A DNA stretch of 64,000 nucleotides from an uncultured virus (IMG/VR IMGVR_UViG_2718217636_000001) (lineage: Duplodnaviria; Heunggongvirae; Uroviricota; Caudoviricetes), in the IMG/VR virus record IMGVR_UViG_2718217636_000001. One strand, given 5' to 3'. Position 1 is the stretch's first letter, and each line of letters opens with the position of its first letter. This document shows, piece by piece, positions 18,635-43,812 of this stretch. A program made the translations under genes and the position numbers. The notes beneath the pieces are model-generated. The model did not search any database. It was not told where the DNA came from and saw only the letters and a list, made by a program, of their open reading frames with translations.

Positions 18635-18636
18635 GG

Positions 18637-19265: not shown

Positions 19266-19274
19266 GCGGCCGCC

Positions 19275-19652: not shown

Positions 19653-19736
19653 CGCTGCCCCCTCCTGAGGCTGGGTGATGGAAGGCCCGCCCGGCGTGCG
19701 GGCGGGCCAGTGGACGCGCAAGCTTTAAGGCTTGTG

Positions 19737-23859: not shown

Positions 23860-25423
23860 CGAGGTCGTCGTCCTGGCCCGGCAGGATCTGCTCGTCGAAC
23901 GAGTCCGGGTCTTGGAGGTTCAGGCCGAGCTCGTCCCGCAGCCGCTTCATCTCCGCCGACACCTGGACGTCGTCCCAGTCCGGGTGGACCATCCGGATGC
24001 GGGTGTCGATGCTGGCGGCCTGCGCCCGGTTCAGCATCTCCACGGTGCGGGCCACGGCCTCGGTCTCCAGGAACACGCCGTCAGGCCACTCGACCTGCGG
24101 ACGCTCGGCGGTGACCTTGCTCTTGTAGATGTAGTGATCCACCGACAGCAGGCAGTCGCCCAACCAGGCCAGCGCGGGCGTCCAGTAGCCGATCTTCCGG
24201 CCCCGAGTGGTGAGGGACTGCCGCTCGCGCGACTGGATCTCCGTCGCGGTCGCTTCGACACCTTCGCCGGCCTCACCGAAGCTCTGCACGCTGTACCCGG
24301 CGCCGCGCAGGATCTGCGCGACCAGGCTCTTGGCGGTCTGCTGGTGCTCGGCCACCCGGATCTCGAACTGGGAGACGGTGATCATGTTGCCGCCGCCGTT
24401 CGCCGGCGGCAGCATCCCAAGCCCGCTGTAGATCTCCCGGTCCGGGTCCCAGTACGAGCCTTTTCCGCGTCCGGTGTTCTGCAGATACACCTCGGGCACG
24501 ATGATGCGGGCCTTGCCGAGCCGCAGGTCCCGCATCCACGACGTCCACGTCTCATCGAGCGCGTCCATCAGCGGCTCCACCCCGGCGTAGTCGGAGCGGC
24601 CCAGCGCCGTCCCCCGCAGCGTCCGGTGCGGCCTCATGTTGGGGACGTAGTAAACAAGCAAGCCCTTTTGATAGCCGGAATCGAAGCCGCCGTCCGCGTC
24701 CACGATGGCCGCGAACCCGGCCGTCGCCGGATGGTCCTCCAGCGGCACCGGGTGACCCAGCCGCGAGTCATCTCCCTGGTAGAGGCCGTGGTAGACGCGG
24801 CCCTTCTCGTGCCGCTCCAGATGCCGCCACACGACCTTCTGGTCCTCGCCGACGACCCGCCAAAACGTGACCGCCGCCAGCCGGCCGGAGTGGAACTCCG
24901 GCACCGCCGTGTCCGCCGGGACCGAGTCGACCACCGGGTAGTCGGCCATCTCCGTGTCCCAGCCGACCCGCAAGTAGACGCCGCCGTACGCGCTGTCCAG
25001 CTCGCCAGCCTCCAGCAGCCCCGCGTACACCGAGCCTTCGTTGAGGATCTGGTCGAGCCGCTTCTGCGTCTTCTTCCCGGCCGCGCGCAGCGTCGGCGGC
25101 TCCGAGAACAGCAGGTCCGCGGACTTGGACGCGATGTCGGCCGCCAGCGGCACGTGCAGCTTCGTCGAGCGGGACTGCCCGGCCGGGATCGGCGACCCCC
25201 AGAACCACCGCGAGACGCGGCCTACCGCGCCGCCGCCCCACTGCAGCGGCCGATCCCAGCCCTTCAGGTCCAGGCCCAGGCCGGGCGTCACCGCCCCGTT
25301 GCCGTACACCTCAGCGAGCCGGTCAGGATCGCCCGAGTACCAGGCCCCGTACTGGCGATACAGACGCATCTCAGCACGGATGTGCGGGGGCGGCCACTCC
25401 TGGTCATGAGTAGGGAGCGGCAT
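23852..25423 (-). CDS. Portal protein (SPP1 gp6/A118-like)
   Basis: LHVPLAADIA...DLLFSE, GRSDY, TATEI. Confidence 0.85.
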   Translation of the reverse strand: MPLPTHDQEWPPPHIRAEMRLYRQYGAWYSGDPDRLAEVYGNGAVTPGLGLDLKGWDRPLQWGGGAVGRVSRWFWGSPIPAGQSRSTKLHVPLAADIASKSADLLFSEPPTLRAAGKKTQKRLDQILNEGSVYAGLLEAGELDSAYGGVYLRVGWDTEMADYPVVDSVPADTAVPEFHSGRLAAVTFWRVVGEDQKVVWRHLERHEKGRVYHGLYQGDDSRLGHPVPLEDHPATAGFAAIVDADGGFDSGYQKGLLVYYVPNMRPHRTLRGTALGRSDYAGVEPLMDALDETWTSWMRDLRLGKARIIVPEVYLQNTGRGKGSYWDPDREIYSGLGMLPPANGGGNMITVSQFEIRVAEHQQTAKSLVAQILRGAGYSVQSFGEAGEGVEATATEIQSRERQSLTTRGRKIGYWTPALAWLGDCLLSVDHYIYKSKVTAERPQVEWPDGVFLETEAVARTVEMLNRAQAASIDTRIRMVHPDWDDVQVSAEMKRLRDELGLNLQDPDSFDEQILPGQDDDLDG

Positions 25424-25450
25424 CACACCACCTCTCGTCGTTCGCGTCGT

Positions 25451-28725: not shown

Positions 28726-30033
28726 TCAGTCGGGCAAGCGGAACTGCTTGCCCCAGTTGGGGACGGGCTCCATCAGCGGCATCCACGCAGCCTGCGTGGT
28801 GTGCAGGATGTACCGGCTGGCGTCGATCGAGTGGTCGTCGAGCTTCACCGGCGCGTCGTCGCCTTTCTCGGCCTTCTTGTCGTCCCAGCTGTAGGAGCCG
28901 ACCTCGCCGAGCCAGCCCAGGCAGGATTCATGCACCCGCAGGTGGTCGCTGGCGATCAGGTTGGACACCGTGCGGATGCCGTCGAGCACCGCGTTATCGC
29001 CCAGCCGAGGCATCAACCCGTCGTGCATCAGCTGCGTGACGAAACTCGCCGCAGACGGGTCGACGACGATGTATTCAGGCCGGAGACCCACCGTGCCGGG
29101 CCCGTACGGGTCGGGCACGGCGTCCAGCCACTCCGAGACCCTCGCCGAGTACTCGGCGTCCGTGAGCTGCCGGCGCTCGGCGCGGGAATCCCACCGCCAC
29201 TCTCTGGCGAGGTAGACGCGCCGCTGGCCAGTGGCGTCCGGGACGGACACCCCGGCGAGCAGAGCCGAGAAAGGATTCACCGTGCCGTAGTCGATGCCGA
29301 CGCCGAGCCACCGTTCCATGAGCGGCAGTTCGTGCACGATGTGACGGTCGGGGTCCCACATGTCGAAGACAGCACCCTCAGCCATGCACCACTCACCGAG
29401 GACGTACCTCCTATACCAGAGGCCGGTGTACTCGGCCTTGAGGTTGGCCACGTACAGCGGGTCCAAGCTGGGATTGTCGTCCAAGGTGAAGTGCCACCAG
29501 CGCAGGTCCAACTCGTGCGAGCGGAGCAGGAACCTCTTGCGCAGCCAGTGGTTCGGAGCGTCCGGGTTCGTCGTAGCAAAGATCATCGCGCCCGGCACGG
29601 AGCAGCGGGCGAGCAGCTGATCCCAGAACGCCTCAGGGATCAGCGTCGCCTCGTCCACGTACGCGCCCGCGCAGGTCAGACCACGCAGCCGAGACTCCGA
29701 CCGGACGTCGTTCGCGGAGATGATCTCGACGCGGCGGCCCAGGATGTTGCCGGTGACCGCGCCGCGCGTGTAGAAGATCCGCCGAGCCACCGGCCCCGTC
29801 AGCGACGGGTCCATCAGCGGCTCGAACACGTTGCGCGCGATCGTGTCGGCGGTCTTGCCGACGATCACCAAGTGGCCGCCACGCGGTGCCTGCGCCACGT
29901 AGATCAGCCACCGCAGCAGACTGGCGATGGTCTTGCCGGAGCGGACACTGCCGGTCCAGATGTTGATCCGGGCCGTCGACTCAGCGATGCTGCGCTCCTG
30001 CATCGGCGACAGCGTGACAACCGCCAGGCTCAC
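28726..30033 (-). CDS. terL: Terminase large subunit (PBSX-type)
   Basis: GSVRSGKT Walker A, VDEAT, TTNP, IDYGTVNP, DDHSIDASRY. Confidence 0.93.
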   Translation of the reverse strand: MSLAVVTLSPMQERSIAESTARINIWTGSVRSGKTIASLLRWLIYVAQAPRGGHLVIVGKTADTIARNVFEPLMDPSLTGPVARRIFYTRGAVTGNILGRRVEIISANDVRSESRLRGLTCAGAYVDEATLIPEAFWDQLLARCSVPGAMIFATTNPDAPNHWLRKRFLLRSHELDLRWWHFTLDDNPSLDPLYVANLKAEYTGLWYRRYVLGEWCMAEGAVFDMWDPDRHIVHELPLMERWLGVGIDYGTVNPFSALLAGVSVPDATGQRRVYLAREWRWDSRAERRQLTDAEYSARVSEWLDAVPDPYGPGTVGLRPEYIVVDPSAASFVTQLMHDGLMPRLGDNAVLDGIRTVSNLIASDHLRVHESCLGWLGEVGSYSWDDKKAEKGDDAPVKLDDHSIDASRYILHTTQAAWMPLMEPVPNWGKQFRLPD

Positions 30034-30506
30034 GGGCGGTCCTCGCCGGCCTCGATGGCGTCCACCACCTCGACCGTCACATCGTCCTGGCCGTGCCGGG
30101 CCTTCAAGTTGGAGAACAGGTTGCCCAGCAGGGAGGCGATGTCGGCGTTCTCCGACCCGTTCCGGTTGAGCAGGTCCAGGCCCAGCAGGCTGCAGCGGCG
30201 CGCGATCAGCTTCTCCGCCTGGTCAACCGCCTTCACATCGCCAGACAGCGCCTTGCCCCAGACGCTGGCCATGAGCCGGTCCAGCCGGTCGATCTCGATC
30301 TGCAGCAGCTGCTCGGACGCCATCTGCTCGGCCTGCGCGGCCTTCTGCAGGCTGCGCGTGATGTCCTTGATGACGGCCGCGCCACTGGAGTAGCCGAGGT
30401 TCTCCGCGATGATCGTCGGGCTGATGCCCGCGATCCGCATCTGCACGGCCTTGGCGCGCCGCTCCGCGACGACGACGGACCGTGCCCGCTTTCTGCTGGA
30501 AACCAT
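30030..30506 (-). CDS. terS: Terminase small subunit
   Basis: N-terminal HTH (IAENLGY), RLDRL, RRCSLLGLD; overlaps terL. Confidence 0.8.
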   Translation of the reverse strand: MVSSRKRARSVVVAERRAKAVQMRIAGISPTIIAENLGYSSGAAVIKDITRSLQKAAQAEQMASEQLLQIEIDRLDRLMASVWGKALSGDVKAVDQAEKLIARRCSLLGLDLLNRNGSENADIASLLGNLFSNLKARHGQDDVTVEVVDAIEAGEDRP

Positions 30507-30552
30507 GAGGGGACCCCCGTCCGAGGTGCGTGAGAGAAGATCAGTGAGGGCG

Positions 30553-30945
30553 TCAGGCGTCGGTGCCGCGCCAGACGTGCAGCACGAGCTGCCCGCCCTT
30601 CACCACCGGCCCGAGCCGCATGTCCGGCCCGACCAGGTGTTCGGCGTCGTCGTCCACCAGCACGCCGGCGTCGGTCATCGCGCCGTCCACCGCCGCCTTC
30701 GCGGACGGATACCAGTTGCCGGGGTCGCGCCTACGCCTGTCGTTCGGCCGGAGCTCGCCAACGACGTACACCCGCTCAAGCCGGGGCAGGCCAACCGCCA
30801 GGGAAGCCCTGTGGCCAGCGCGGCGCAGCAGCTTCGTGACGCGAGCCTTCGCCATCGGGTGCAGCCGCTGATTCGAGTTCAGAAGCTCCAGGCCCGGCGG
30901 CAACTCGATGCTCCAGTCCGGGGCAGGCCGCTCGTCGAACCACAT
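30553..30945 (-). CDS. RusA-like Holliday junction resolvase
   Basis: RRRDPGN...KAAVDG...AGVLVDDD. Confidence 0.75.
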   Translation of the reverse strand: MWFDERPAPDWSIELPPGLELLNSNQRLHPMAKARVTKLLRRAGHRASLAVGLPRLERVYVVGELRPNDRRRRDPGNWYPSAKAAVDGAMTDAGVLVDDDAEHLVGPDMRLGPVVKGGQLVLHVWRGTDA

Positions 30946-30959
30946 CGGTCACCCCCTCG

Positions 30960-31730
30960 CTACTGGGCAGAGGCGAAAGCCCCGATCACCGCCCACGAAT
31001 GCCACCTGAACAGGACTTCCGGCGCGTGCCATCCGGCCGCGACCATGGCGTCCGCGGTGGCCTGCTGCGGGTACGGCCGCAGCACCCCGCGCAGGGCCTT
31101 CGCCTTGGCTCGGATCGCCGAGTCGCTGATGCCGTGCGCGGCCTTGTAGTCGTGCGCGACGTCCTGGCCGATCTCGGCCCACCGGCTGTCGATGGCGCGG
31201 ATTTTCTCGGCGACGATCAGGGCGCCGCTCTCGGCCGAACGCTGCCGGGCGAGCCGGAGCGCCTTCACCCGCTCCTTGCGCGGTAGGAACTGCAGCGTGA
31301 ACAGCGCCAAGGTCAGGTCGGCGTCCTCATGCGCGAGCGGCCCGTCCTGGATGCGGGTCGCGCTGAGCATGGCGTCGTACACGCCGCCCACCTTGGAGGC
31401 GAGCTTGCGCAGTTCGACGGCGGCCTGGTCGAGCATCGCGGGCTGCTCGTCGTACAACACGAACCGGACGCCCCGGTCAGGGTGCCGCTCCAGGATGCGC
31501 CGCGCTGACGCCCCGGTCGACGCTCCGAGGTCGGCGACCAGGCCGCCGGCCGGGACGAGCCAGTCGGTCGTCTCGGCCACGAGGTCCTGGATCACGTCGT
31601 AGTGCGGGACGCTGGCGCGCACGTGGTCGTCGAACACCTCGACCACCTCGGGCGTGAACTGCCAGCCGCCAGTGTCGAACCGTTCGGCGACGTCAGCGTC
31701 TCTCTGACGCGGCAACCGTGCACCAGTCAA
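30960..31730 (-). CDS. CmoA-like (carboxy-SAM synthase family) SAM-dependent enzyme
   Basis: WQFTPEVVEVFDDHVRASVPHY, DLGASTG, FTLQFL, GALIVAEK, HDYKAAHG all match CmoA blocks. Confidence 0.8.
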   Translation of the reverse strand: MTGARLPRQRDADVAERFDTGGWQFTPEVVEVFDDHVRASVPHYDVIQDLVAETTDWLVPAGGLVADLGASTGASARRILERHPDRGVRFVLYDEQPAMLDQAAVELRKLASKVGGVYDAMLSATRIQDGPLAHEDADLTLALFTLQFLPRKERVKALRLARQRSAESGALIVAEKIRAIDSRWAEIGQDVAHDYKAAHGISDSAIRAKAKALRGVLRPYPQQATADAMVAAGWHAPEVLFRWHSWAVIGAFASAQ

Positions 31731-31962
31731 GGGAGAATCCTCTTTAGACCGACATGTAAAGGCGACATATCCAGAAAGACGGGCGATTGGAAATTAAACG
31801 TGCCCGGTTGGTCAGATTTTCCCAATAGATTCATTGGCGGGAAATTGAATGTGCATTGTCTTGGTCTGAAAAATCCGGCGATAGACTTCATTTATTGCTT
31901 CCGCATCTCGTGGGCCGCCTAGTCGGCGGACTTCTGCGACAGGGACAGCGAGGAGAGTTGCA

Positions 31963-32577
31963 ATGTCGAAGACCAAGGGCTACCTGAACGCGATCATCGC
32001 GCCATTGCTAGTTTTCGCCGCACCACTCCCTGCATTCGCGAAAATGGACAGCAACCGCGATCGCGGCCCCGACACCTGGATCAACAACAAGATCACAGGC
32101 GGACAACTCTTCGTCGACATCCCCAGCGAATGTCGCTACAACATCGAGAACCCTGAATGCGTCCTCGGTAGGCGTATCCGATTGGGTGCCCGAATCGGCG
32201 GCAATTACCATGCCTTCTTTTTTGAGAGCTCGCCCGGCATCACAGGCGATCTAATCAGATGGACCGGCCTGAACGGGACGAAGTGTTTGGATGTGGCACA
32301 TGACGGTAAAGCCAATGGCGCGGCCGTAGTCTTGTGGGGTTGCCACGGGGGCCCTAACCAGCGGTGGAGAGCGGATAGCTTCTACTCCGGCCCCCACAAG
32401 GGTTTCAGGATCCTCGTGAGCGTCAGCAGCGGCAAGTGCCTCGACGTCCACAACGGGGCCTACCCTGAGTGGCCACGCCCCAATGCTCCCCTACAGATAT
32501 GGGACTGCTTCCATCCCACCGATCTTAGAAAGGCTGCGAACCGTGTCAATCAAGTCTGGGAGTTCAAGCGATACTAG
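31963..32577 (+). CDS. Secreted ricin-B (RICIN) lectin domain protein (moron)
   Basis: Signal peptide (AFA), KCLDV x2, WGCHGGPNQRW, QIWDC, NQVW; lower GC. Confidence 0.85.
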   Translation: MSKTKGYLNAIIAPLLVFAAPLPAFAKMDSNRDRGPDTWINNKITGGQLFVDIPSECRYNIENPECVLGRRIRLGARIGGNYHAFFFESSPGITGDLIRWTGLNGTKCLDVAHDGKANGAAVVLWGCHGGPNQRWRADSFYSGPHKGFRILVSVSSGKCLDVHNGAYPEWPRPNAPLQIWDCFHPTDLRKAANRVNQVWEFKRY

Positions 32578-32627
32578 TATTTTCCTGTCCTGACGAGATG
32601 AAGCTTGCGGATGGCGAAGCGTACATC

Positions 32628-34040
32628 TCATGCACTGTTCCTGACGAGGCGCTGGTATTCGGCGCGGTAGAAACGGGCCGGGTTCGGCAGCACGTCCATG
32701 ATCGCGGTCTTCAAACCTAACCCGTCCTGGAACGCGACCTTCGGCCGCCTCACCACGGCGTCGGGCAGCAGCCCGGCGTACGCGCGCTGCAGCACCGCCT
32801 TGGGGTGGGCCTTGCCGTCCGCCACGGCGTGCTGCGGCAGCGACAGCGCCAGATCGACCACGTCGGGGTCGCAGAACGGCAACCGCCCCTCCACCGAGTG
32901 CGCCATAAACGTCTTGTTGACGCGCGGGAAGTTCTTGCGGGCCTGCGCCGCCATGAGGTCGCACCGGTAGATGTGCCAGTCGGTCTTCTGCAGCGCGTGG
33001 AAGGCGAACCCGTAGCTGGCCCACAGCTCGTCGCTGCCCTCGCCGGAGTAGGTGACCTTGAAGCCGTCCGAGCGGATCCGCTCGGCGAGCTGCAGGCACG
33101 CCCACCCGATCTCCACCTGCGCCTTGTGCGGCATCTCGATCACGGACACCACGCGGGCCAGGTCGTCAGCGGTCGGCGCCGGGATGTCCACCTCTATCAG
33201 CCGGATCCCGAGCTGCTCTGCGGTCTCGCGCGCGCACCGCAGGTCCCGAGACTTCGGGTCCATGCGGGCGGTGTACGCCACCAGATCGGGCACGTGCTGC
33301 GCCAGCTCGTACGTGATCGCGGCCGAGTCGATGCCGCCGGACAGCAGCGCGCACACCGGCACGTCGGCGATGAGCCGCCGCTGTACCGCCCGCGCCAGCG
33401 TGTCCTTCAGCGTCGCCGACGCGAGCTCCAGCGTGTAGCCCGCCGGCGTGCACCGCTGGGTGTGGAAGCGGCTCCACTGGGCGCGGCGGCCGTGGAATGT
33501 CCCCCACTGCCCGGCGGGGACGTCCGCGATCAGGTGCGCGGCCATCGGGCGGCCAGCCGCGGCGAACGCGCGCAGCTCGGACGCGGCCATGACGGGCTGC
33601 GCCAGGTGCAGGTGCAGCGGGATCTCGCCGTGCCGGTCGCGGGCGACGTGAAGCACGCCCGGCCGCCGGTCGTCGGCCCACGCCACGGCGAACATGCCGT
33701 TCACCATCGGCAGGGCTCGTTCGGGGCCGAGCACGGCGAGCGCGGCGGCCAGGGCCTCTGTGTCGCCCGTCGTCGCCCAGCCCCGGCCAGGGACGCGCTC
33801 CTCGACGGCCTGGCGCAGTTCGGCGGCGTTGTAGATCTCGCCGTTGTAGGCGACCGTGACCGGCCCGTCCCGGTACGGCTGGTCGGATCGGCTGTCGAGG
33901 TCCTGCACCGCGAGCCGGGTGTGTCCGAGATGCACGCCGTCCACTTCGACCAGGCTGGACGCGTCCGGCCCACGATGGGTGAGCGCCGCCACGGCCGGGG
34001 CCAAGTCGAGCCGACCGAGGCCGGCGACGACACCGCACAT
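32628..34040 (-). CDS. Asparagine synthetase B-like glutamine amidotransferase / amide ligase
   Basis: MCG Ntn cysteine, HRGPD, YNGEIYN, SGGIDS, SGEGSDEL, VEGRLPF. Confidence 0.88.
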   Translation of the reverse strand: MCGVVAGLGRLDLAPAVAALTHRGPDASSLVEVDGVHLGHTRLAVQDLDSRSDQPYRDGPVTVAYNGEIYNAAELRQAVEERVPGRGWATTGDTEALAAALAVLGPERALPMVNGMFAVAWADDRRPGVLHVARDRHGEIPLHLHLAQPVMAASELRAFAAAGRPMAAHLIADVPAGQWGTFHGRRAQWSRFHTQRCTPAGYTLELASATLKDTLARAVQRRLIADVPVCALLSGGIDSAAITYELAQHVPDLVAYTARMDPKSRDLRCARETAEQLGIRLIEVDIPAPTADDLARVVSVIEMPHKAQVEIGWACLQLAERIRSDGFKVTYSGEGSDELWASYGFAFHALQKTDWHIYRCDLMAAQARKNFPRVNKTFMAHSVEGRLPFCDPDVVDLALSLPQHAVADGKAHPKAVLQRAYAGLLPDAVVRRPKVAFQDGLGLKTAIMDVLPNPARFYRAEYQRLVRNSA

Positions 34041-35131
34041 CAGATCCTCCCCGCGTCTCGTAGCGGCACGAGCACCTGATCGCGCACGGTCTTAGCGATC
34101 CGCGCCATCATCACCGGCGGCACGGCGCGGCCGATCCGCTCCCACCGGCGGTAGTAGGAGCCGGTGAGCTGGAAGTCGTCCGGGAAGCCGCCCAGGCGGC
34201 GCAGCTCGGCGAGCGACGGGTAGCGCGGGTGGTCGGGGTGGGTGAGCGCGGCGGTGCCAGCGGTGCCCGCCCTGGCCACGATGGTGTGCGCGGGCTGGTC
34301 CCACGCCATCCGCTTGAGGCTGGTCCGCTTCTTGTGGCCTTCGCCGGGCCGCAGCTCGTGCCAGTACTTCTCCACGGCGTAGCCGCGCAGCGTGAGCGGC
34401 TGCCCGGTCTCCGGGTCTTCGGCCAGGTCGTCGTGCGCGCCCGGCAGGTCGCCGATCGCGTCGCGCACCGTGTACCGGTACGGCAGCGGCGCTGGGTGGG
34501 CAGGGTCAACGCCGAGGTCATCGCGGACGCCGACGAAGATGAGCCGACGCCGGGCCTGCGGCACGCCGAGCCATTGTGCGTCGAGCAGCTTCGCCGTGAC
34601 GCGGTATCCGGGCTTGCGCAGCGCGGCCAGGATCTCCTTGAAGTAGCCCTTCGCGGTGCCCTGCACCAGACCGGCGACGTTCTCCGCGACGAACACTTTG
34701 GGCTGCAGGTCGCCGAGGAGGCGCGTGAACTCGAAGAACAGGTCGTCCACCCGCTGCTTGGTGTCGCTGTAGGTCTTGACGGTGTCCCACCCGGCCTCGC
34801 GCTTGCCCGAGGAGGAGAACGCGGCGCACGGCGGGCTGCCGTCGAGCAGGTCGAGCTCTCTCACCTTGAGGCCGATCCGGACGAGGATGTCCTTCGCGGT
34901 GACCTGGCGGATGTCGCGGGTGTCGAGGTGGGTGTACGCCGCGGCGTTGGCCCGGTAGGTCTCGGCGGCTGCGGCAATGAACTCCGACGCCCAAAGTATG
35001 CGGAAGCCGGCCGTGCGGTAGCCGAGCGACGAACCGCCACAGCCGGAGAAGGTGCTGACGGCGTTGAAGCCGTTCCACGGCACCGCCCGGACCTCGGCCA
35101 TGGTCGGCACTCGGTACGGCAGCTTGGTCAG
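34040..35131 (-). CDS. C5 cytosine DNA methyltransferase-family enzyme (possible carboxymethyltransferase)
   Basis: FSGCGG, GSPPC, ENV, QARRR, GFPDDF, motif X GRAVPP; start CTG 35131 (GGAGG RBS) or ATG 35101. Confidence 0.88.
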   Translation of the reverse strand: MTKLPYRVPTMAEVRAVPWNGFNAVSTFSGCGGSSLGYRTAGFRILWASEFIAAAAETYRANAAAYTHLDTRDIRQVTAKDILVRIGLKVRELDLLDGSPPCAAFSSSGKREAGWDTVKTYSDTKQRVDDLFFEFTRLLGDLQPKVFVAENVAGLVQGTAKGYFKEILAALRKPGYRVTAKLLDAQWLGVPQARRRLIFVGVRDDLGVDPAHPAPLPYRYTVRDAIGDLPGAHDDLAEDPETGQPLTLRGYAVEKYWHELRPGEGHKKRTSLKRMAWDQPAHTIVARAGTAGTAALTHPDHPRYPSLAELRRLGGFPDDFQLTGSYYRRWERIGRAVPPVMMARIAKTVRDQVLVPLRDAGRI

Positions 35132-35454
35132 GGGTGCGGCCTCCACTTGTGGCCGTGAATCTCTGGCAGGGGGCATGGACCAATCCAGTCGAGAGAGGGC
35201 TTGGAGTCCAGCACGATCAGGTGACCTGAGCCATACAGGCCAATGCGAAGACGAGAATCGGTCAGCTGCGTGGCGAGTCGCTCCACCTCTTCCACACGGA
35301 ACCCGTCGTTCAGAGTCGAACGGTGTACTCCGAACGTCTACCTTGCTTGAACAGCTCCCGGAGGTACCCTTGAGGGGCGCGTTGAAAAGCGGATCTCCGA
35401 TCAAGATTCACTGTCCTTACCCGAATCCTGAGCGATGCGGGCCCTACCCGCCCA

Positions 35455-35493
35455 CCTATGAGCCTGGTTTGCTCCCGTAACGAGGCTCATAGG
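35455..35493 (+). promoter_or_regulatory. Perfect 11-bp stem-loop in leader of small ORF
   Basis: CCTATGAGCCT-17nt-AGGCTCATAGG. Confidence 0.5.
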
Positions 35494-35533
35494 CCGGGAT
35501 GTGGCCCGCCTCGTTATTGGAGAAGGGAAGATC

Positions 35534-35653
35534 ATGGATCGCGACCCGGAGAGGCGGAGCCGTTGGTGGTGGCTTCCGGGATCTTTAGCCGCAGCAGCCT
35601 CGGTTGCACGGCTCGTGTATGAGATCTTCCGCGACCGGGCTGGGCTCCACTAA
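35534..35653 (+). CDS. 39-aa peptide, type I toxin-like candidate
   Basis: MDRDPERRSRWWWLPGSLAAAASVARLVYEIFRDRAGLH; purine-rich RBS; followed by terminator. Confidence 0.55.
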   Translation: MDRDPERRSRWWWLPGSLAAAASVARLVYEIFRDRAGLH

Positions 35654-35661
35654 GGCCCAGT

Positions 35662-35688
35662 AGGCCCCCGACTTGCTCGGGGGCCTTT
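35662..35688 (+). terminator. Intrinsic terminator
   Basis: AGGCCCCCGA-CTTGC-TCGGGGGCCT-TT. Confidence 0.65.
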
Positions 35689-35727
35689 CCCATTAGGCGG
35701 CGCGTTGCCGCTCGGCCTTCGTTGATA

Positions 35728-36360
35728 TCACTTGGGCTTACCACTCCAGCTATACGCGCAGCGCGGGCACTGGTAGTCGGTCGAGATGTCGTCGTCGAAC
35801 TCCTGGAAGCCCTCCGGCGACGGCCCGTCCGCGTCGCGGGTGCCGCCGCCGACGCCGTACCGCTCGTCGTAGTCCAGCACGCCCTCGGTGATGTGTGCGT
35901 CCGCCGCGAGCGCCTCCTGCAGTGTGGCCGCCTCGTCCTCGGAGTAGCCCGTGGCCGCAAGCAGCGCCTCGTCAGCCGCCCGGATCTCCTGCAGCGACAG
36001 CGCCAGCACGTCTTGGTCCCATCCGCCCTTTTCGTTGGTGCGGTTGTGGGCGATCATGTACGCCTCGGCGTCCGCGTCGGACCGGGACCGCCAGCCGCGC
36101 ACGATGGCCGCCATCCACGTGCCGTCCTCGCCCAGCTGCACGCCTTCCGGCGGGCTCGCGCCCTCGGCCTGCATCTGCATCAGGACTTCCTTGCGGCCGT
36201 GCCCGGCGACCAGTCGGCCGGTCCGCTCGTCTACCTCTCCGGCGACCACGCACCCGAACGTCTCGATGGACCTGCGGATGCTCGACAGGTCGTGGTCCTT
36301 GGCGTTCCGACTCGCGGAGGGAATCTCCGGGATCGGCATGTACTTGATGTACCGCTTCAT
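35728..36360 (-). CDS. ParB/Srx-like nuclease-domain protein with C-terminal Zn ribbon (DNA-modification associated)
   Basis: RNAKDHD, SIETFG, LVAGHGR, YQCPRCAYSW. Confidence 0.8.
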   Translation of the reverse strand: MKRYIKYMPIPEIPSASRNAKDHDLSSIRRSIETFGCVVAGEVDERTGRLVAGHGRKEVLMQMQAEGASPPEGVQLGEDGTWMAAIVRGWRSRSDADAEAYMIAHNRTNEKGGWDQDVLALSLQEIRAADEALLAATGYSEDEAATLQEALAADAHITEGVLDYDERYGVGGGTRDADGPSPEGFQEFDDDISTDYQCPRCAYSWSGKPK

Positions 36361-36968
36361 CACGCCTCCGCCTCGGCCGGCGACGTCGCGGGGAAAGCGC
36401 GGACGATTGCGTGGAACAGGTGGTCCTTGACCCGCTGCGACTGCGGCAGCGCCGCGTACGGCAGCAGACACGGATGCGTGCGCGCCTCGTCGTCCTTGAT
36501 CAGGCCGTACGTCCAGCCCTCAGCCGTCTTCGCCTCGCACCACCGCTCGTGCAGCTCCTGCGGAGTCGCGCCGGCCAGCGCCGCCTGGACGCCTTGGACC
36601 GCGGACTCTCGCTGCCACTCGGGCGCGTCGGCCCAGTGCGGCGACGGAGCCTCACCGGCGGCGATCTGCATGACGCGGTTCGCCTCGTGGCAGACGCGGG
36701 CGATCGTGGTCACATACACCTTCATGTCGGGGTCCTCGGGGTTTTCGGGGGTGCGGGGGTCGTCGTCGGGCAGCTTCTCCACCTCGGCCGCGGCTTCGCG
36801 CAGCAGCTCGGCCATGTCCGCGCGGAACGCCTTCGTGTCCAGGAGCAGGGACATCTCGCCTGGCTCGTCGCCGGGGACCGCCTTGAGAGGCAGCAAGAAC
36901 TCGCCGAGGAGGACGTCTTGGGAGCCGACCCGGAAGATCAGGCTGCCGGGCACCGTCATCGCCATCAC
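36360..36968 (-). CDS. RyR-domain protein
   Basis: ARVCHEAN, HERW...GWTYG, HPCLLPYAALP, KD. Confidence 0.8.
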   Translation of the reverse strand: MMAMTVPGSLIFRVGSQDVLLGEFLLPLKAVPGDEPGEMSLLLDTKAFRADMAELLREAAAEVEKLPDDDPRTPENPEDPDMKVYVTTIARVCHEANRVMQIAAGEAPSPHWADAPEWQRESAVQGVQAALAGATPQELHERWCEAKTAEGWTYGLIKDDEARTHPCLLPYAALPQSQRVKDHLFHAIVRAFPATSPAEAEA

Positions 36969-37147
36969 GCCACCACCGGTTCGCAGGCGAGCAGCTGGTG
37001 CCCGCGCCGCTTGTACCAGGCGTCGAGGGCGTCGGCGAGGACCTCTTCGATCTCGACGGTGACCTCGTCGACGCTGGTGTCCTCGGGCAGGTGGTCGCTG
37101 TCGTTGATGGTCGCGGCGACGGACCAGCGGATCAAAGTGGCGCTCAC
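36965..37147 (-). CDS. Hypothetical protein
   Basis: GTGA overlaps at both ends. Confidence 0.5.
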   Translation of the reverse strand: MSATLIRWSVAATINDSDHLPEDTSVDEVTVEIEEVLADALDAWYKRRGHQLLACEPVVA

Positions 37148-38205
37148 GGGGTGCCTCCGTCCGTGGTCTGCGGCTGGTAGCCGTACGCGGTTCGGCGCTC
37201 GCTCAGCTGCTTGGCGGCCAGCGTGCAGGCCAGCACGTCCCAGCAGCGGGCCTCGACGGCCTCCTCGGGCACCGGAACCGACGCCGCGGTGGTGCCTCCT
37301 CTGCCGGGGCGGGTGACGATCGGCGTGGCCGACTCCCACTCGACCGCCCAGTGGTACTTCGCGGCCCACTCGGCGCGCGGGCGGCCGAGCCGGACCCGCT
37401 TCAGGGTGAGCTGCACCTGGTGGCGGTCGCCTTCCGGCATGAGGATCCAGCCCATGACCGGGCCTTCCACGGGGCGAGAGCTGTACCGCTTGGGGCCGAG
37501 CAGCTTCTCCACCAGGTCGAAGCTGACGCTGCCGTGCATCCACCACGGATCGTCTCGTGACCACTCGTGCTCGCGGGCCCACAGCTTCCAGCGGAGCGCC
37601 CACTCGCTGACCGACACCTCGATGACGCGCGCGGTGTAGCCGGTTGGGTTCAGGCGGCGCTGCAGCCACGTGCCGAACCCCTCGGTGTGCAGGTAGAGCG
37701 CGCCGAGCGGGTTGAGCCGGATGTGCGTTGCCAGCGTGTTGTCGCCGCCAGCGCAGCCGACCTCGAACGCGATCGAGAACGCGCCGAACGTGCGGTCGAG
37801 CAGGACCTGCGCGCCGAGGCTGCCGGTGGGCTTGGCTGGCCACGGGCCGGGCAGCCGTAGGCCGGCGCGGACGCGGTTCATGGCCGCCCGCACTTCCTCG
37901 GTGGTGAGGACGTGCCGCTCGGGCGTCTCGTACAGGCCGTCGTAGCGGGAGCCGAGAGGCCACTCTTCGGGGGTGAGGTCGCCCTGCGGGTCGGGGCGGA
38001 CGCCGCATCGGTCGCAGGTGACCCAGCGGCGCGCCGCCAGGCCGCGCTTGTGGCGGCCGTACCCGTCGATGACCGGTTTGTGGCCGAGCAGGCGGCACCG
38101 CAGCATGAGGCGGGGCGCGTCGTTGAGCCAGACGCTTCGATCGACCAGCAGGCCGGGCGTGGGGTGGCCGTCGTCCTTGCGGTTGTCGCGGGAGTGCCAG
38201 TGCAC
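37144..38205 (-). CDS. Hypothetical phage protein with CRLLGH...CDRC Zn motif
   Basis: GGAGG RBS before GTG 38205; long open frame. Confidence 0.65.
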   Translation of the reverse strand: MHWHSRDNRKDDGHPTPGLLVDRSVWLNDAPRLMLRCRLLGHKPVIDGYGRHKRGLAARRWVTCDRCGVRPDPQGDLTPEEWPLGSRYDGLYETPERHVLTTEEVRAAMNRVRAGLRLPGPWPAKPTGSLGAQVLLDRTFGAFSIAFEVGCAGGDNTLATHIRLNPLGALYLHTEGFGTWLQRRLNPTGYTARVIEVSVSEWALRWKLWAREHEWSRDDPWWMHGSVSFDLVEKLLGPKRYSSRPVEGPVMGWILMPEGDRHQVQLTLKRVRLGRPRAEWAAKYHWAVEWESATPIVTRPGRGGTTAASVPVPEEAVEARCWDVLACTLAAKQLSERRTAYGYQPQTTDGGTP

Positions 38206-38307
38206 GAGGGGGCCTCCAGGTGGCGAGGGGTGGAGGGCCCGGCCCCGGCTCGTTTTCCGCGCCTCCCCCGATGAGCGCAGGGCCGTGCCGGGGCCGGGTG
38301 AACATGG

Positions 38308-38344
38308 GGAAGGCCCCGTCCCATCAAGGGGATCGGGGCCTTCC
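38308..38344. terminator. Hairpin at left edge of accessory island
   Basis: GGAAGGCCCC...GGGGCCTTCC. Confidence 0.5.
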
Positions 38345-39258
38345 AGCTCGTTTCGCGTCTCAGAGCGTCTGAGACAAGATCGACTCATGGGGGGGTCGAG
38401 AGCCATGCGGCGCGCCTTGAACGGGCAACACGCGCGGGCTCAGAGACGCGTACGAGCAAACATGCAAGCACTTTGGCATGCGTGTTCCACTCTGGCGGGC
38501 AGCATATGCACTGTTGTCAAGCCTCCGCAACCCTGATCCGCCAACCAGACGCGGCCGAGGGCATCCAGGGGCAAGCTCACGATCAGAGAGAGGGCGGCGG
38601 CGTGATCGATTTCGGCGGGCGGCGACCCTCCGAGTAAAGGTGTTCGAGCATCCGGGCATATGGCTGCAGAGACAGAGTTTCCTTACCTCCCCAGGGGAGG
38701 TCGAACTCCTCCGGTAAGCCGACCCAGACGTGGAGCCGATCAGGGTGCACAACCGACCCTGCCGCCTGCCAGACAGTCATAACCTTGACCCGGGTTGGAC
38801 TCCTTGGCGATCGGCAGATGGGCAGGGCTCGCTTATATAAACGCGCGCGATAAAGGCTCCACACCCTCCAGCCAGGAAGGATGCTCCACAGGGATTAATA
38901 GAGATAAATGCCAGAGAGTATTGCTGGACTATTTATACTAGGGCACTATTCGCGTCGGCGGTCGTATTAAATGACTGCACACTCTACCTGGGAAGACTTG
39001 GCATGTACTAAGCGATTGAGGGCTCTTGGAAGATCGGAAGCCGGGTGCGCGACGACTCCTTGCGGATCGAACTGGTGCGCACACGGAGAAGAAACCCTAG
39101 ATAATAAAAACTGCTCGACCTCCCGGGGTAAAGGGCCCCAAGAGGCGAGCAATGATACCGACCGAGTCCTCAGGACCGTGGCCGGGGTGGAGCGTCGACA
39201 ACTCCACTCTACGCCACGGACCAGGGCCTCGGTTGGATCACCGACCGAAGGAGTGATC

Positions 39259-39432
39259 GTGCATAACCTGCTGCCCATGCCCTGGATCATCGACGTGTGG
39301 AGCCTGTGCCTCAACCCGCTCTGGGATCGTGAGCGGCCATGGATCTCGGTGATCCCCGTCACCGTGGTGATCCTTGTGCTTCTTGTTTGCGGGCAGATGC
39401 AGCCGACGTGGGAGGTTCACATCTACCTCTAG
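39259..39432 (+). CDS. Small membrane peptide (57 aa)
   Basis: GAAGGAG RBS just before GTG; WISVIPVTVVILVLLVC helix. Confidence 0.4.
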   Translation: MHNLLPMPWIIDVWSLCLNPLWDRERPWISVIPVTVVILVLLVCGQMQPTWEVHIYL

Positions 39433-39654
39433 CCGTTCCTCCGCCGATCGATTAACCCGTCCCCTACCTGCTCAACACCATGCGGGCCGAGCACCTCAGC
39501 GTGCGAGGCCCGCACTGTGCGCTCTATGGTCAGGCTGCGACGGCGTGAATCTCACCGCGTCCTTACACTGCCCGCTTCACATTCGGATGCGCGCTGTGGC
39601 GTTGTCAGCCCACTGGCCGACGATCCACAGGTACTCGTGCAGCGCAGCCCTGCT

Positions 39655-40479
39655 TCAGATGAGCACCAAGGCGTCGTCTGAAACGTCTTCGGTTCGCACT
39701 CGCCACCGCCCGTCCGGCAACCGATCTGACGCTACTCTCATCCGCTCCGCCCATTCCGCCGTGGGCCAGTGCGTCCAATCGCTCCACACCACCTGGGGCA
39801 GGAGCGCACGGATCAGGTTAGCGCCGTCCAGGTCAGCGCCGATGAGGTTGGCGCCGGTCAGGTTCGCGTTGGCAAGGTTGGCTCCGATCAACCTCGCGCT
39901 CTCCAAAATCGCGCGGGTCAGGTTTGCGCCAGCCAGCTCCGCGTCGATGAGCTTCGCGCCAGACAGGTTGGCGTGGATCAGGTTCACACCGGACAGGTCC
40001 GTGCGGATGAGGAACGCGTCAGCCAAGAACGCGCCAGCCAAGTCCGCGTCGGTCAGGTCCGCGTCAGTCAGGTCCGTGTGGGTCAAGTTCACTCGGCTCA
40101 GCTTTGCGCCGCTGAGATGTGCGCCGCTCAGGTTCGCGCCACTAAGGGTTGCGCTAATCAAGGTCGCGCCGGACAAGTTCGCACCGCTTAGGTTCGCACC
40201 GATCAGACGCACGCTGACGAGAGTTGCACGGCTTAGGTTGGCGCCGGCCAGGTCCGCGCCGGTCAGGTCCGTGTCGCTCAGATCTGTGTCGCTCAGATCA
40301 GCGCCGCTCAGGGGTGTACTTACCAGGCCGGTGCCCCAGGTATTACCGAATGCAGGAGCGGTACGTGTCCAGGCCGCCGACCACCGCCCGATCCGGCCCT
40401 CCCCTGATGGACGGAAGGCGGGCGAACTGCGGGCGAAGGCTGCGACGATTCGGCCCGCCAGCGAGTCAGCGCGCAGCAT
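39655..40479 (-). CDS. Pentapeptide repeat protein
   Basis: About 30 A(D/N)LxG pentapeptide units; GGAGGAGG RBS. Confidence 0.85.
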   Translation of the reverse strand: MLRADSLAGRIVAAFARSSPAFRPSGEGRIGRWSAAWTRTAPAFGNTWGTGLVSTPLSGADLSDTDLSDTDLTGADLAGANLSRATLVSVRLIGANLSGANLSGATLISATLSGANLSGAHLSGAKLSRVNLTHTDLTDADLTDADLAGAFLADAFLIRTDLSGVNLIHANLSGAKLIDAELAGANLTRAILESARLIGANLANANLTGANLIGADLDGANLIRALLPQVVWSDWTHWPTAEWAERMRVASDRLPDGRWRVRTEDVSDDALVLI

Positions 40480-40909
40480 CTCGCCCCTCCTCCACACCAG
40501 TGATCTCCGCTTCACTTGACGGGTGTTCCCGGAGGTTGAGCAACTCTTGTGACAACGATGGGCCGCTGGCACCCGCCGCTGGAAACGCAGCCGGAGCATC
40601 AGCCAGGGGCAGGTCCGCCTGTACGGGAATCTGTTGGCTGAGCTTCTCCAGGATGAGAGGTGCGGCCGTGCCCAAGGCAAACGCAATGAGTGGCGTCACG
40701 CAGTCCACCGAAGCTCCTGCGGCGCCCGCGACCACCGCGCTCAGTGCCGCTCGGACGAGCACCGAGACGAAATAGGGGCCGCCGCCCGGTCCGTACGGGT
40801 AACGCCACGGCCACCCTCGCCCCACTCTCCGTGCCGCCTTGAAAAATTCCAGCGCCTCGATGGCCAGACCTCCGCCCAGCCCCCACAACGCAAGCACCCA
40901 GACGCTCAT
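40466..40909 (-). CDS. Membrane protein
   Basis: Three hydrophobic segments; overlaps pentapeptide gene. Confidence 0.65.
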   Translation of the reverse strand: MSVWVLALWGLGGGLAIEALEFFKAARRVGRGWPWRYPYGPGGGPYFVSVLVRAALSAVVAGAAGASVDCVTPLIAFALGTAAPLILEKLSQQIPVQADLPLADAPAAFPAAGASGPSLSQELLNLREHPSSEAEITGVEEGRDAAR

Positions 40910-41023
40910 GCACTGACCGTAAGCCGACCATGTCGTGCCGCGCACGGCTTCAGGACAACTCGCACAACCTAGGCGTGACCGGGGGCTCTGACGGACGCCC
41001 ACAGCTACGAAGGTTCCGGGGCC

Positions 41024-41669
41024 TCACATGCCGATGCCCGCCGTGGCGTTGTCCGCCCACTGGTCCACGATCCGCAGATACTCGTGCAACGCAGTGCCGT
41101 TCGGCGACTATCCGCCTGCACGGCGATCGTCTTGGTGTCGTGCCCGGCCGCCCGCGCCGCCGTGGCGAGGCCGGCGCGCATACTATGCCCGGTGATGCCG
41201 TCCAGGCCCACCGCCTCGGCCGCCGCCGTGACCGCGATCCCGATGCTCTGCCCCGTGATCGGACCCAGCATCTTGCGCCGGTTGAAGCGCAGGAATGCGG
41301 GCCCGTCCGGGTCGAGGTCCGCAGCCGCCGCCCACGCCAGCCAGGCGCGCCGGGGGCACGGCGACCCCGCGCTCCCGCAGGGACACCGCCGCGCCGTACA
41401 AGTTCCGCTCGATCGTCGACGGCGCCCTGCCCTCCTTCCCCAGCCAGATCACGAACCCGAGGAACGCTCCCGGAGTGCCGACCTCCAGCGGGATGCGCAC
41501 GGCTGACATACCGCTCCCAGGCCCGCCAGTCGGAGGCATAGGCGCGCAGGGTGTTGTCGGCGCGGGACTCGAACTTCTCGGCCGCCTGGTCGAGCGCGGC
41601 GTTGTCGGCGGATCCCAGCTCGCGGCCGCCCCGGAGCTTCTGCTGTTCGTCAAGCAGCGTGCGTGTCAA
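41024..41669 (-). pseudogene. Decayed Cre-like tyrosine recombinase
   Basis: NTLRAYASDWRAW / APSTIER / GHSMRAGLAT / LHEYLRIVDQW pieces lie in different frames; only about 645 bp. Confidence 0.8.
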
Positions 41670-41790
41670 CCGCTCATCGTCATCTCCTGTTTGGCTGGGG
41701 GCTGAGGGCAGGCCCCAGATCTTTGCTGGCCATTGGTTTACAACTGGAGACGCTCAGGTGTTCTGTCGAGGTAAGAGCTAGGAGAACGCC

Positions 41791-42009
41791 ATGTCGATGC
41801 AGTGGGCGCTCGCCATTGCAGCCCTCATCAATGTTGTAGGGCACGTTTGGGCCTGGAGGAATCTGCCGCGAAACACCGCACTCCTGGTGTCGGCTTGGAT
41901 TCTGTTGGTAACGATCTTTCTTGTGGTGCTGCTTGTCCATGCGATATGGGTGATCGTCGTGTTGGCCCTCGCCGCTGTGGTCCTTGCGCTCTTCTTGGCT
42001 GCGCACTAG
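41791..42009 (+). CDS. Small membrane protein
   Basis: 72 aa, very hydrophobic, AGGAG RBS. Confidence 0.6.
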   Translation: MSMQWALAIAALINVVGHVWAWRNLPRNTALLVSAWILLVTIFLVVLLVHAIWVIVVLALAAVVLALFLAAH

Positions 42010-42114
42010 TGAGTATGCATTTGTGGGTCGTGCCGTCCGGTTCGGCGCTCCCAGGAACTTGTTGAACTACATGCCAAGCCGCTAGCTCTTTCACTTGCGT
42101 AACGAAACATATCT

Positions 42115-42148
42115 CTAACTCACGATAAGAGACGTTATCGTGAGTTAT
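42115..42148. other. loxP-like recombination site
   Basis: CTAACTCACGATA-AGAGACGT-TATCGTGAGTTAT (13-8-13). Confidence 0.7.
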
Positions 42149-42164
42149 GCCACGATTGGCGACG

Positions 42165-42656
42165 CTATGGGCGAGGCCGCTTCAACCACTGCGGAAGGCT
42201 TCGAGCCGCAGGATGGCCAGGATCGCTCAGGTCCGCCACGTGTAGTCGGAAACTGTGCGCATGCTGCCCTTCCTCGACGGCTTTCCGCATTACCTCTTCG
42301 CTGAGCGACCGAACCACCGGGCTCTCTCCTGACCGGTCCACCACCACATCCGGCTCGTTGTGCGGCGCGAGTCGCCCCAGGTGCCAGCCCAGTTCGGCAG
42401 CCCTCTCCACCAGCCCATCTATCTCAGCGTTTCCGACGGACGCGCCCCGCGCGTCGGCTTGCGCTAGTTCCTCCTCCACGCTCTCCCGAGCCTGCTCCAC
42501 CTCGGCCAGTTCCACCGCTACCCCCGCAGCCTCCAACCGCTTCGCCCGCCCCATCGTCGCCGCCAACGGCCGGCGCAACACCACCACCGCCACCACCACA
42601 GCGACAGGCCAGGCTAGAGAGCTCACGAGGGACGCCACAAGCTGGAAACCCGACAT
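42165..42656 (-). CDS. N-terminally membrane-anchored protein
   Basis: LVSSLAWPVAVVVAVVVLRRPL. Confidence 0.65.
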   Translation of the reverse strand: MSGFQLVASLVSSLAWPVAVVVAVVVLRRPLAATMGRAKRLEAAGVAVELAEVEQARESVEEELAQADARGASVGNAEIDGLVERAAELGWHLGRLAPHNEPDVVVDRSGESPVVRSLSEEVMRKAVEEGQHAHSFRLHVADLSDPGHPAARSLPQWLKRPRP

Positions 42657-42704
42657 GACTCGCGCCACCTGTCCCATCCGCGATGAGCCCCGTATCGTCA
42701 GGTT

Positions 42705-43355
42705 ATGTCGGGATTGCCGATGTTGCCTGCGCAGCGCCGCGAGGCGCTTCGAGCCCTACGCGCTCAGAGGCGGAAGACGGAGAGACTGCTTCTTATAGCG
42801 ATGGTCGTGATGGGGTTCTCCATGCTGCTCGGCGCGGTGGCTGCAGCGCCGTTCCCGAGCCCGGCCAACACGATTGTCTTCTTCGTCGTCTGGATTCTTG
42901 CCGCGTTTGGCCCCTCCGGCTACCTCGGCCGTAAGTCGAAGAAGGAAGCAGACGCAATCGCGAAACATGAGCGAGAGATCGTGAGGCTCTATGAGAAGTT
43001 ACTTGATGTGCAAGACCCTGCACTTGAGGAACGTCTGACGATAGCCGCTCACCAACTGGTTGCCCTGTCCGCAGAGTTGAGCGAGCTACAGGTGATGGCG
43101 ACGCACCGAGCCGAGGTCATCGAGCAGCTCAAACAGCAGGCCCATCATGCACGACTGCAGTCGGAGTCGGATCAGAACCTGGCGGCGAAGTACCAGCGGG
43201 CAGCGGAGGGTATGCGTGACTACCTCGAAGTCCAGGCGGACGACTTGGACAGCCGCCAGCGCCGTACACAGTGGTTCTTCTATGTGCTGGCGTCGGTGAC
43301 CGGTTATGCCGTGGGCCTGTTGACAACTTGGACATACGAGCTCATGTCGAAGTAG
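42705..43355 (+). CDS. Membrane protein (2TM, coiled coil, C-terminal TM)
   Basis: Hydrophobic segments flanking a heptad-rich region. Confidence 0.65.
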   Translation: MSGLPMLPAQRREALRALRAQRRKTERLLLIAMVVMGFSMLLGAVAAAPFPSPANTIVFFVVWILAAFGPSGYLGRKSKKEADAIAKHEREIVRLYEKLLDVQDPALEERLTIAAHQLVALSAELSELQVMATHRAEVIEQLKQQAHHARLQSESDQNLAAKYQRAAEGMRDYLEVQADDLDSRQRRTQWFFYVLASVTGYAVGLLTTWTYELMSK

Positions 43356-43356
43356 C

Positions 43357-43620: not shown

Positions 43621-43812
43621 CCACACACCAACCAGCATGCACCAGCACCAGGACACAGCACAGCAGAGCAAGGCAGGGCAGCACAGCGACGCCAAGTGCA
43701 CCCCGGCCCCCCTCCCCCCGGGGGGTGGGGGGTCGGTGCGGCCGGAGGAAAACGGGAAGGGCTCCACACGCGTGCCAGCGTGTGGAGCCCTGAGCGCGTT
43801 AGCGCGGTGAAA

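Follow-up and report, generated by a model that had tools for sequence, protein, structure and literature searches.

A prophage locus of a high-GC actinomycete that probably encodes a CmoA-CmoX-CmoY type DNA hypermodification module with a glutamine-dependent ligase

What base would be written into DNA by a phage locus in which a C5 cytosine methyltransferase (MTase) homologue with an Arg in motif X lies beside genes for an AsnB-like amidotransferase, a CmoA-like protein and a ParB-like protein? The locus lies in a stretch of 64,000 nucleotides of an uncultured virus of the Caudoviricetes (IMG/VR record IMGVR_UViG_2718217636_000001), the whole of which is called the window here. The original prediction, made from the letters of the window, was that the phage makes carboxy-S-adenosylmethionine (carboxy-SAM, Cx-SAM), carboxymethylates cytosine with it and then amidates the product by the AsnB-type enzyme as a defence against restriction; it also suspected that a related pathway had been reported from another phage. 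That suspicion was correct. Yang et al. (Nat Commun, December 2025; PMC12783734) characterised experimentally the CmoA, CmoX and CmoY proteins of Synechococcus phage S-B43, in which CmoA makes carboxy-SAM, CmoX makes 5-carboxymethylcytosine (5cxmC) at GC sites and SpCmoY, a short AsnB-like protein, ligates glycine to 5-carboxymethylcytosine. As the pathway is already published, most of the novelty is gone, and the question becomes whether the window carries it and with which final base. We consider the locus to be, with fair probability, a prophage-borne CmoA-CmoX-CmoY hypermodification module of the glutamine-dependent subtype found in Streptomyces phage TurkishDelight, judging from sequence comparisons.

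The four genes were confirmed from the sequence and its open reading frames (ORFs) to be co-directional on the minus strand upstream of the terminase (Table 1). The claimed overlap of the MTase stop with the AsnB-like start is also there, the TGA at 34042-34040 sharing one base with the ATG at 34040-34038 (TGATG), and a Shine-Dalgarno-like GGAGGA stands directly upstream of this junction. The MTase homologue matches PF00145 (E 6e-52), and the statement that it has all C5 MTase motifs holds, since motifs I (FSGCGGSS), IV (GSPPCAAFS), VI (AENVAG), VIII (PQARRRL), IX (LRRLGGFPDDF) and X (GRAVPP) could be read from the sequence. The Arg reported in motif X was likewise found, its codon being CGC, and GRAVPP aligns with GRMVPP of the SpCmoX structure 8YF3. 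In SpCmoX this Arg350 replaces Asn304 of HhaI and contacts the cofactor carboxylate, and the enzyme accepts Cx-SAM only, while its R350N variant accepts neither cofactor (PMC12783734). A basic motif-X residue also allows the engineered M.MpeI N374K to use Cx-SAM and form 5cxmC (PMC12783734); that enzyme is engineered, has Lys and targets CG, whereas the window enzyme is natural, has Arg and belongs to the CmoX lineage. The best match of the MTase in the PDB was 8YF3 (E 2.2e-63), followed by HaeIII (E 3.5e-25), and in the alignment with 8YF3 the cofactor contacts Phe25, Glu47, Phe48 and Asp69 of SpCmoX are all conserved together with Cys98 and Arg350. The segment DGSPPCAAF aligns with S95-C98 of SpCmoX, and in the 378-aa form SPPC occupies residues 114-117. 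Because homology to SpCmoX begins only at residue 94 of the MTase ORF, the true start is probably the ATG at 35176 (378 aa) or the GTG at 35146. Identity is 57% to TurkishDelight gp123 and ~39-40% to S-B43 CmoX (tblastn), and no further match to the window protein was found in its own genome at E<=1e-5. Yang et al. used SPPC together with Arg350 to collect 5,615 CmoX candidates, along with 4,257 CmoA proteins, 2,251 ligases and 1,660 ParBc proteins (PMC12783734), and by their sequence criteria we class the window MTase as a CmoX homologue, called CmoX below. A palindrome-avoidance scan for a hint of the target site showed only CTAG to be low (0.64), which is uninformative.

The ligase, which would be the CmoY homologue, has 470 aa with matches to GATase_6/7 and Asn_synthase, a Cys2 nucleophile and an SGGIDS PP-loop. 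It is 65% identical to TurkishDelight gp124 over 465 residues, which is the full length, and an exact look-up identified gp124 as UniRef100_A0A7T0Q3R0. This entry represents the second-largest ligase cluster of Yang et al., which carries a glutamine-hydrolysing domain and for which the authors suggest glutamine-derived ammonia (PMC12783734); their ligase network used a threshold of ~30% identity. Because gp124 is the representative of that cluster, the window ligase can be assigned to the glutamine-amidase type. The supplements of PMC12783734 contained no occurrence of A0A7T0Q3R0, TurkishDelight or Streptomyces. To place the ligase among its relatives, IMG/VR and one-genome-per-species contigs were scanned with it, and all window proteins were then compared by tblastn with every fetched locus. 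A clade of 12 loci with a ligase at least 48% identical was obtained, comprising nine IMG/VR contigs (L012-L020), two Nonomuraea sp. genome records (L041 and L042, ligase 89% identical) and TurkishDelight.

When the 12 clade ligases were aligned with E. coli AsnB, the glutaminase residues Cys1, Arg30, Asp33, Arg49, Asn74, Gly75, Glu76 and Asp98 were found to be kept in all of them, as were the PP-loop SGGxDS, Arg387, Lys449 and the equivalents of Glu348, Asp351 and Glu352 in the SGEGSDE segment. The same 12 proteins have AQVE for the TTIR of E. coli AsnB, miss the C-terminal ~90 AsnB residues and are altered at Lys376 and Asp384 (Lys376 to Leu and Asp384 to Asn). In PMC5775275, Thr316, Thr317 and Arg319 of the wheat enzyme, which are the TTIR equivalents, are assigned to aspartate/ATP binding after Boehlein et al. 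The intact amidase site, AQVE for TTIR and the lost AsnB C-terminus together form a signature of the clade (12/12). Such features fit an enzyme that would hydrolyse glutamine and adenylate a carboxylate other than that of aspartate. An identity as AsnB itself was rejected, as the ligase scores below both AsnB equivalog cut-offs (253.4 against 267.1 bits and 229.8 against 499 bits), has AQVE for TTIR and is devoid of the C-terminal region with Cys523; compared with E. coli AsnB (1CT9) it shares the two domains, the glutaminase residues, the PP-loop, SGEGSDE and Lys449, but is always linked to CmoX and CmoA. The glycine-ligase type of SpCmoY was rejected as well, given the glutaminase domain and an identity of 28% over only 159 residues. 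Five further sequences (L045, L052, L054, L057 and L066) were rejected as references for ordinary AsnB, being long AsnB-family paralogues and not true AsnB, so only E. coli AsnB served as reference. A search for the ligase at E<=1e-60 gave no match in 150 other sampled genomes of the family, just 3 of which share the genus; this is consistent with sporadic carriage by a prophage.

For the CmoA-like protein, 64% identity to TurkishDelight gp125 was found, with matches to phrog_4752 (E 3.2e-50) and to E. coli CmoA in the PDB (4GEK, E 8.5e-20). It belongs to the fold family of 4GEK and conserves Tyr39, the SAM motif D-x-G-x-S-x-G, Asp89 and Lys198, where the roles of the residues are taken from PMC3663124. 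It differs in having no adjoining cmoB and in having a DNA rather than a tRNA enzyme as partner, and its score with PRK15451 is 73 bits against a cut-off of 285. We read it as a homologue of CmoA that has diverged. The same genome has a second CmoA-like gene outside the phage context (G000:C16:35334-36035; L010 9332-10042, minus strand), with 115.8 bits to TIGR00740 and Lys at the position of E. coli Arg199. It adjoins an 818-aa protein with a domain like the methyltransferases of daptide-type ribosomally synthesised and post-translationally modified peptides (75 bits, below cut-off) and lies near an ABC transporter, and may belong to a natural-product locus that uses carboxy-SAM.

The original prediction had proposed to look for co-occurrence of the motif-X Arg with cmoA and asnB neighbours, and this was found throughout the clade. 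CmoA adjoins the ligase in 12/12 loci, and CmoX lies upstream of it in all 11 loci whose sequence extends that far, L014 being truncated within the ligase. The ParB-like gene is present in 10 of these 11, the remaining locus L018 giving no tblastn match to it. As a control, neither CmoX nor CmoA was found in any of the 98 remaining loci that these scans had fetched (84 with an AsnB-like match of <=37% identity and 14 without a match at E<=1e-5), a control that is lenient because some of these loci are short. SPPC together with G-R-[AMS]-V is present in 14/14 CmoX homologues, including those of S-B43, Moraxella phage Mcat8 and Pseudomonas phage PaBG. Two members of the clade (L013, 1141-2601; L018, 4469-6001) have ~130 extra residues in the variable target-recognition region of CmoX, between conserved halves, which suggests that target sequences may differ within the clade. 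In L017 (4978-7404) the CmoX frame has no stop and runs into the ligase frame to give an ORF of 808 codons, with the junction ...GRAVPPPYDVPS...GGCL and then MCGIVGG. A fusion of CmoX with the ligase, a read-through or an assembly error might account for it; in a fused protein the ligase would be devoid of the free N-terminal Cys that the amidase needs.

TurkishDelight (NC_073473), the closest isolated phage in our phage searches, encodes in gp121-gp125 two ParB-like proteins, the MTase, the glutamine amidotransferase and the CmoA-like protein in the same order as the window. It is an isolated phage of 93.6 kb that has the module at the end of its genome and two ParB-like genes, whereas in the window the module belongs to a prophage, has the terminase genes as neighbours and is interrupted by two insertions. 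S-B43 has the same three enzyme families in one cluster, with SPPC, Arg350 and the cofactor contacts in CmoX, a CmoA that is 27% identical to the window CmoA-like protein and a ligase with the PP-loop adenylating domain in common. It differs in the ligase, SpCmoY having 271 aa, no glutaminase domain and glycine as the amine, against 470 aa and an intact Ntn glutamine amidase in the window. The gene order is A-Y-X in S-B43 and ParB-X-Y-A in the window, and S-B43 is a cyanophage of the Kyanoviridae, which we take to be lytic, as opposed to a siphovirus-like actinomycete prophage.

The label ParB-like was borne out even though Pfam gave no match to the window protein at E<=1. PHROG 620 (ParB-like partition protein) matches it with E 4.8e-28, PF02195 matches 2 of 9 aligned members of its family (best E 1.8e-5), and an AlphaFold2 model built on the family alignment (mean pLDDT 80) gave in Foldseek PadC 6RYK as the best match (E 2.2e-4), with ParB-CDP/CTP complexes, Noc, KorB and sulfiredoxin also matched. 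The model thus points to a ParB/Srx fold. An acidic stretch in the window protein is followed by a C-terminal CPxCxYxWSGKP tail. Both the acidic stretch and an end in C-P-x-C-x-[YF] are present in 9/9 clade proteins, and in 8/9 the motif continues with E/S/C-W-S, mostly as W-S-G-K-P; the tail has a single Cys pair, like half a zinc ribbon, and may be a docking motif. The TurkishDelight protein is 28% identical to that of the window and ends in the same tail (CPRC..WSGKP). A ParB-type gene is frequently associated with the system (PMC12783734). We regard the protein as a putative conserved DNA-binding accessory to the module.

The chain put forward in the original prediction, from Cx-SAM through carboxymethylation of cytosine to AsnB-type amidation, is the pathway of S-B43 and gains support from 8YF3 as best PDB match with SPPC and Arg350, from the adjacency of CmoA and the ParB-like gene and from the identity of the ligase to A0A7T0Q3R0. 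In the scheme that we propose, CmoA would convert SAM and prephenate into carboxy-SAM. CmoX would follow the normal C5-MTase mechanism with attack of the Cys on C6 of cytosine, while the motif-X Arg would hold the cofactor carboxylate, and a carboxymethyl group would be transferred onto C5 in double-stranded phage DNA to give 5-carboxymethylcytosine. The AsnB-like enzyme would then adenylate the carboxylate of the 5-carboxymethyl group at its PP-loop, and ammonia freed from glutamine by the N-terminal Cys amidase domain would attack to form a primary amide. The predicted final base is 5-carbamoylmethylcytosine, with [M+H]+ of the nucleoside at ~285.1 by arithmetic. The RusA-like and small-terminase genes lie between the CmoA-like gene and the large terminase. 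Since the module is immediately upstream of the terminase genes, we propose that modification would take place in the lytic cycle, ahead of packaging, and would shield the DNA from host nucleases. The first two steps and the glycine version of the third were shown in S-B43; their extension to the window is by analogy, through homology, signature residues and synteny, and from these we infer that the window proteins are active and yield the amide, as well as the target sequence and a role against restriction. A literature search did not find 5-carbamoylmethylcytosine reported in DNA, the matches to 'carbamoylmethyl' being to RNA or unrelated chemistry; for CmoX/CmoY it yielded PMC12783734 alone. 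Whether the module writes this never-observed base by channelling glutamine-derived ammonia onto the carboxymethyl group of duplex DNA, with the SGEGSDE pocket reading the N4 amino group of cytosine instead of the alpha-amino group of aspartate, seems to us evenly balanced, and the role given to the pocket is speculation.

Two insertions bear on whether the module is expressed. Break points in blastn comparisons place one of ~600 bp between the ParB-like gene and CmoX and one of ~935 bp and low GC between CmoY and CmoA (Table 1). The former provides the present 5′ end of CmoX; the two genes abut in L012 and L042, and L041 has a different insert of ~630 bp (L041 4294-4922) at the same junction, which may be a recurrent insertion spot. 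A 15-nt hairpin pair lies inside the insert of the window (35455-35493). The latter insertion is absent from L012, L041, L042 and L015 and provides the present 5′ end of CmoA. It carries a gene for a ricin-type beta-trefoil lectin (PF14200, E 1.2e-14; PF00652, E 8.6e-11) whose hydrophobic N-terminus, judged by eye in the translation, resembles a signal peptide. No tblastn match to this gene was found in any related locus, and lying antisense to the module it looks like a moron-like passenger acquired inside the operon. The possibility that the insertions are mobile repeats was rejected, as each occurs only once in the genome and convincing repeats at their termini are missing.

Several points weigh against the reading of the locus as a working glutamine-dependent module. 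The insertions, which give CmoX and CmoA new 5′ ends, do away with the tight gene junctions and the coupling seen in relatives, so that it is uncertain whether this prophage expresses the module. The motif VIII-IX region of CmoX aligns poorly with SpCmoX, and no soluble enzyme was obtained by the authors from the A0A7T0Q3R0 ligase cluster (PMC12783734). The acidic pocket for the aspartate alpha-amino group, formed by Glu364, Asp367 and Glu368 in human asparagine synthetase (PMC6748925), is fully retained in the ligase as SGEGSDE, so that remodelling of the acyl-substrate site is not obvious in all its parts. The CmoA-like protein reaches 100.4 bits with TIGR00740 (E 1.2e-28) against a cut-off of 193.3, and the caveat in the original prediction that Arg199 is replaced by Ala was correct in our alignments, where QKRSMLEN of E. 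coli aligns with AKAKALRG. In E. coli CmoA, Arg199 is salt-bridged to the Cx-SAM carboxylate (PMC3663124). The loss appears to be a real but weak caveat, mitigated though not removed and hardly disqualifying, because SpCmoA, which is more active than E. coli CmoA (PMC12783734), also has no Arg at this position: the alignment places a Glu there, and KEKELRD of SpCmoA and KAKALRG of the window follow a common K-x-K/R-x-L-R pattern. Among 16 phage CmoA homologues the aligned residue is Arg in 4, Ala in 9 and Glu in 3; with Arg in only 4, Arg199 does not define the phage CmoA clade and is an unreliable marker for phage Cx-SAM synthases.

The retained SGEGSDE pocket, which binds an alpha-amino group, would also suit a ligase that, after the same Cx-SAM and 5-carboxymethylcytosine steps, adds another amine such as an amino acid, or one whose glutaminase serves some other purpose. 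The only CmoY assayed attaches glycine, and several ligase clusters with unidentified amines have been noted (PMC12783734). Against this, the glutamine-binding and catalytic amidase residues, including the N-terminal Cys, are kept in 12/12 clade members, which is hard to explain without ammonia channelling, and SpCmoY is a protein without the amidase domain whose likeness to the window ligase is confined to a short stretch of low identity. We therefore hold another amine to be unlikely, though it deserves some weight. It is improbable, too, that the module is decaying or silent, with insertions that uncouple CmoX and CmoA and DNA left unmodified or modified in part (for example with 5cxmC that is not amidated, or not at all if Cx-SAM is missing). 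That the insertions are absent from L012 and L042 and replace start regions, one of them with an oppositely oriented gene, speaks for it, but none of the four reading frames is broken, their identity to relatives is 75-89%, their GC3 of 0.85-0.93 is like that of other prophage genes, a minus-strand promoter-like site (consensus match only) lies in the insertion upstream of CmoA, and the ParB/CmoX junction of L041 has likewise accommodated an insert.

An ordinary 5-methylcytosine MTase that merely stands beside unrelated auxiliary genes, namely an asparagine synthetase and a tRNA-modification CmoA, would account for the complete set of C5-MTase motifs, for the label 'tRNA methyltransferase' that PHROG gives to the CmoA family and for an AsnB-like score near the equivalog cut-off (253 against 267 bits). 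It would leave unexplained the change of the motif-X Asn to Arg as in SpCmoX, which uses Cx-SAM only, the strict co-occurrence of the three genes as opposed to 0/98 ordinary AsnB loci, and the replacement of TTIR by AQVE with loss of the C-terminus; moreover, a tRNA scan of the window gave no tRNA gene. We give this explanation very little credence.

Returning to the glutamine-dependent module, its ligase is of the type that ranks second in frequency among CmoX partners (PMC12783734), of which the single protein tried was insoluble; the window ligase and its 11 orthologues (48-89% identical) are alternative proteins to express. If the proposal is true, DNA would for the first time be known as a substrate of a glutamine amidotransferase. 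A GC-type specificity in a temperate phage of a host with ~69% GC would touch about one third of the cytosines; 7,024 GpC sites were counted in 57.6 kb. That the module is found in temperate actinophages also raises the question of modification of host DNA during lysogeny or induction.

Table 1. Coordinates of the module, its insertions and other prophage features in the window
Feature	Position	Strand	Basis or remark
Endolysins	843-2875	-	minus-strand prophage
Tail proteins and tape-measure-like genes	3650-15850	-	minus-strand prophage
Major tail, connector and major head genes	16589-20684	-	minus-strand prophage
MuF-like minor head protein	21988-23859	-	Phage_min_cap2
Portal	23852-25426	-	minus-strand prophage
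Large terminase	28726-30033	-	TIGR01547, E 1.5e-36
Small-terminase-like gene	30030-30506	-	assigned by position and size only
RusA-like Holliday junction resolvase	30553-30945	-	phrog_34, E 1.8e-18
CmoA-like gene	30960-31730	-	
Insertion of ~935 bp, GC 0.50-0.58	31701-32634		between CmoY and CmoA; blastn break points
Ricin-type lectin gene	31963-32577	+	opposite strand to module
AsnB-like amidotransferase	32628-34040	-	
C5 MTase homologue	34040-35176 (ORF open to 35404)	-	
Motif-X Arg codon CGC	34127-34129	-	equivalent of SpCmoX Arg350 and HhaI Asn304
SPPC codons (catalytic Cys = SpCmoX Cys98)	34826-34837	-	alignment to 8YF3
Insertion of ~600 bp, GC 0.61	35131-35733		between ParB-like gene and CmoX; blastn break points against L012 and L042
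ParB-like gene	35728-36360 (ORF extendable to 36471)	-	
RyR-domain protein	36360-36968	-	PF02026, E 1.6e-11; phrog_5154, E 8.8e-40
Primase/helicase-like replication gene	55499-57649	-	

The window has a G+C content of ~68-70%, and the prophage in it spans from ~0.8 kb to at least 58 kb, is siphovirus-like and has its genes read on the minus strand; the module is hosted by a prophage of a high-GC actinomycete. The terminase genes are 85-92% identical to those of relatives, and the sole family match of the small-terminase-like gene is phrog_645, labelled 'Rnase E'. Rfam gave no match over 30000-39500 at E<=0.1, and a terminator scan over 30900-36500 showed no terminator-like site. The stop of the RyR-domain gene overlaps the start of the ParB-like gene, and the gene has the same position in the relatives L012 and L015 (tblastn, 66% identity), so that the RyR-domain protein may be a member of the module. 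Farther from the module, the primase/helicase-like protein has an internal match to LAGLIDADG_3 at residues 471-523, which may represent an intein or an inserted homing endonuclease. A gene at 39655-40686 on the minus strand encodes a pentapeptide-repeat protein of 343 aa (PF00805, E 2.3e-49) and sits in a lower-GC stretch of the prophage (38400-43800, GC 0.63-0.67). The MuF-like minor head protein has an ADP-ribosyltransferase domain fused on at its C-terminus (PF03496, E 1.3e-27).

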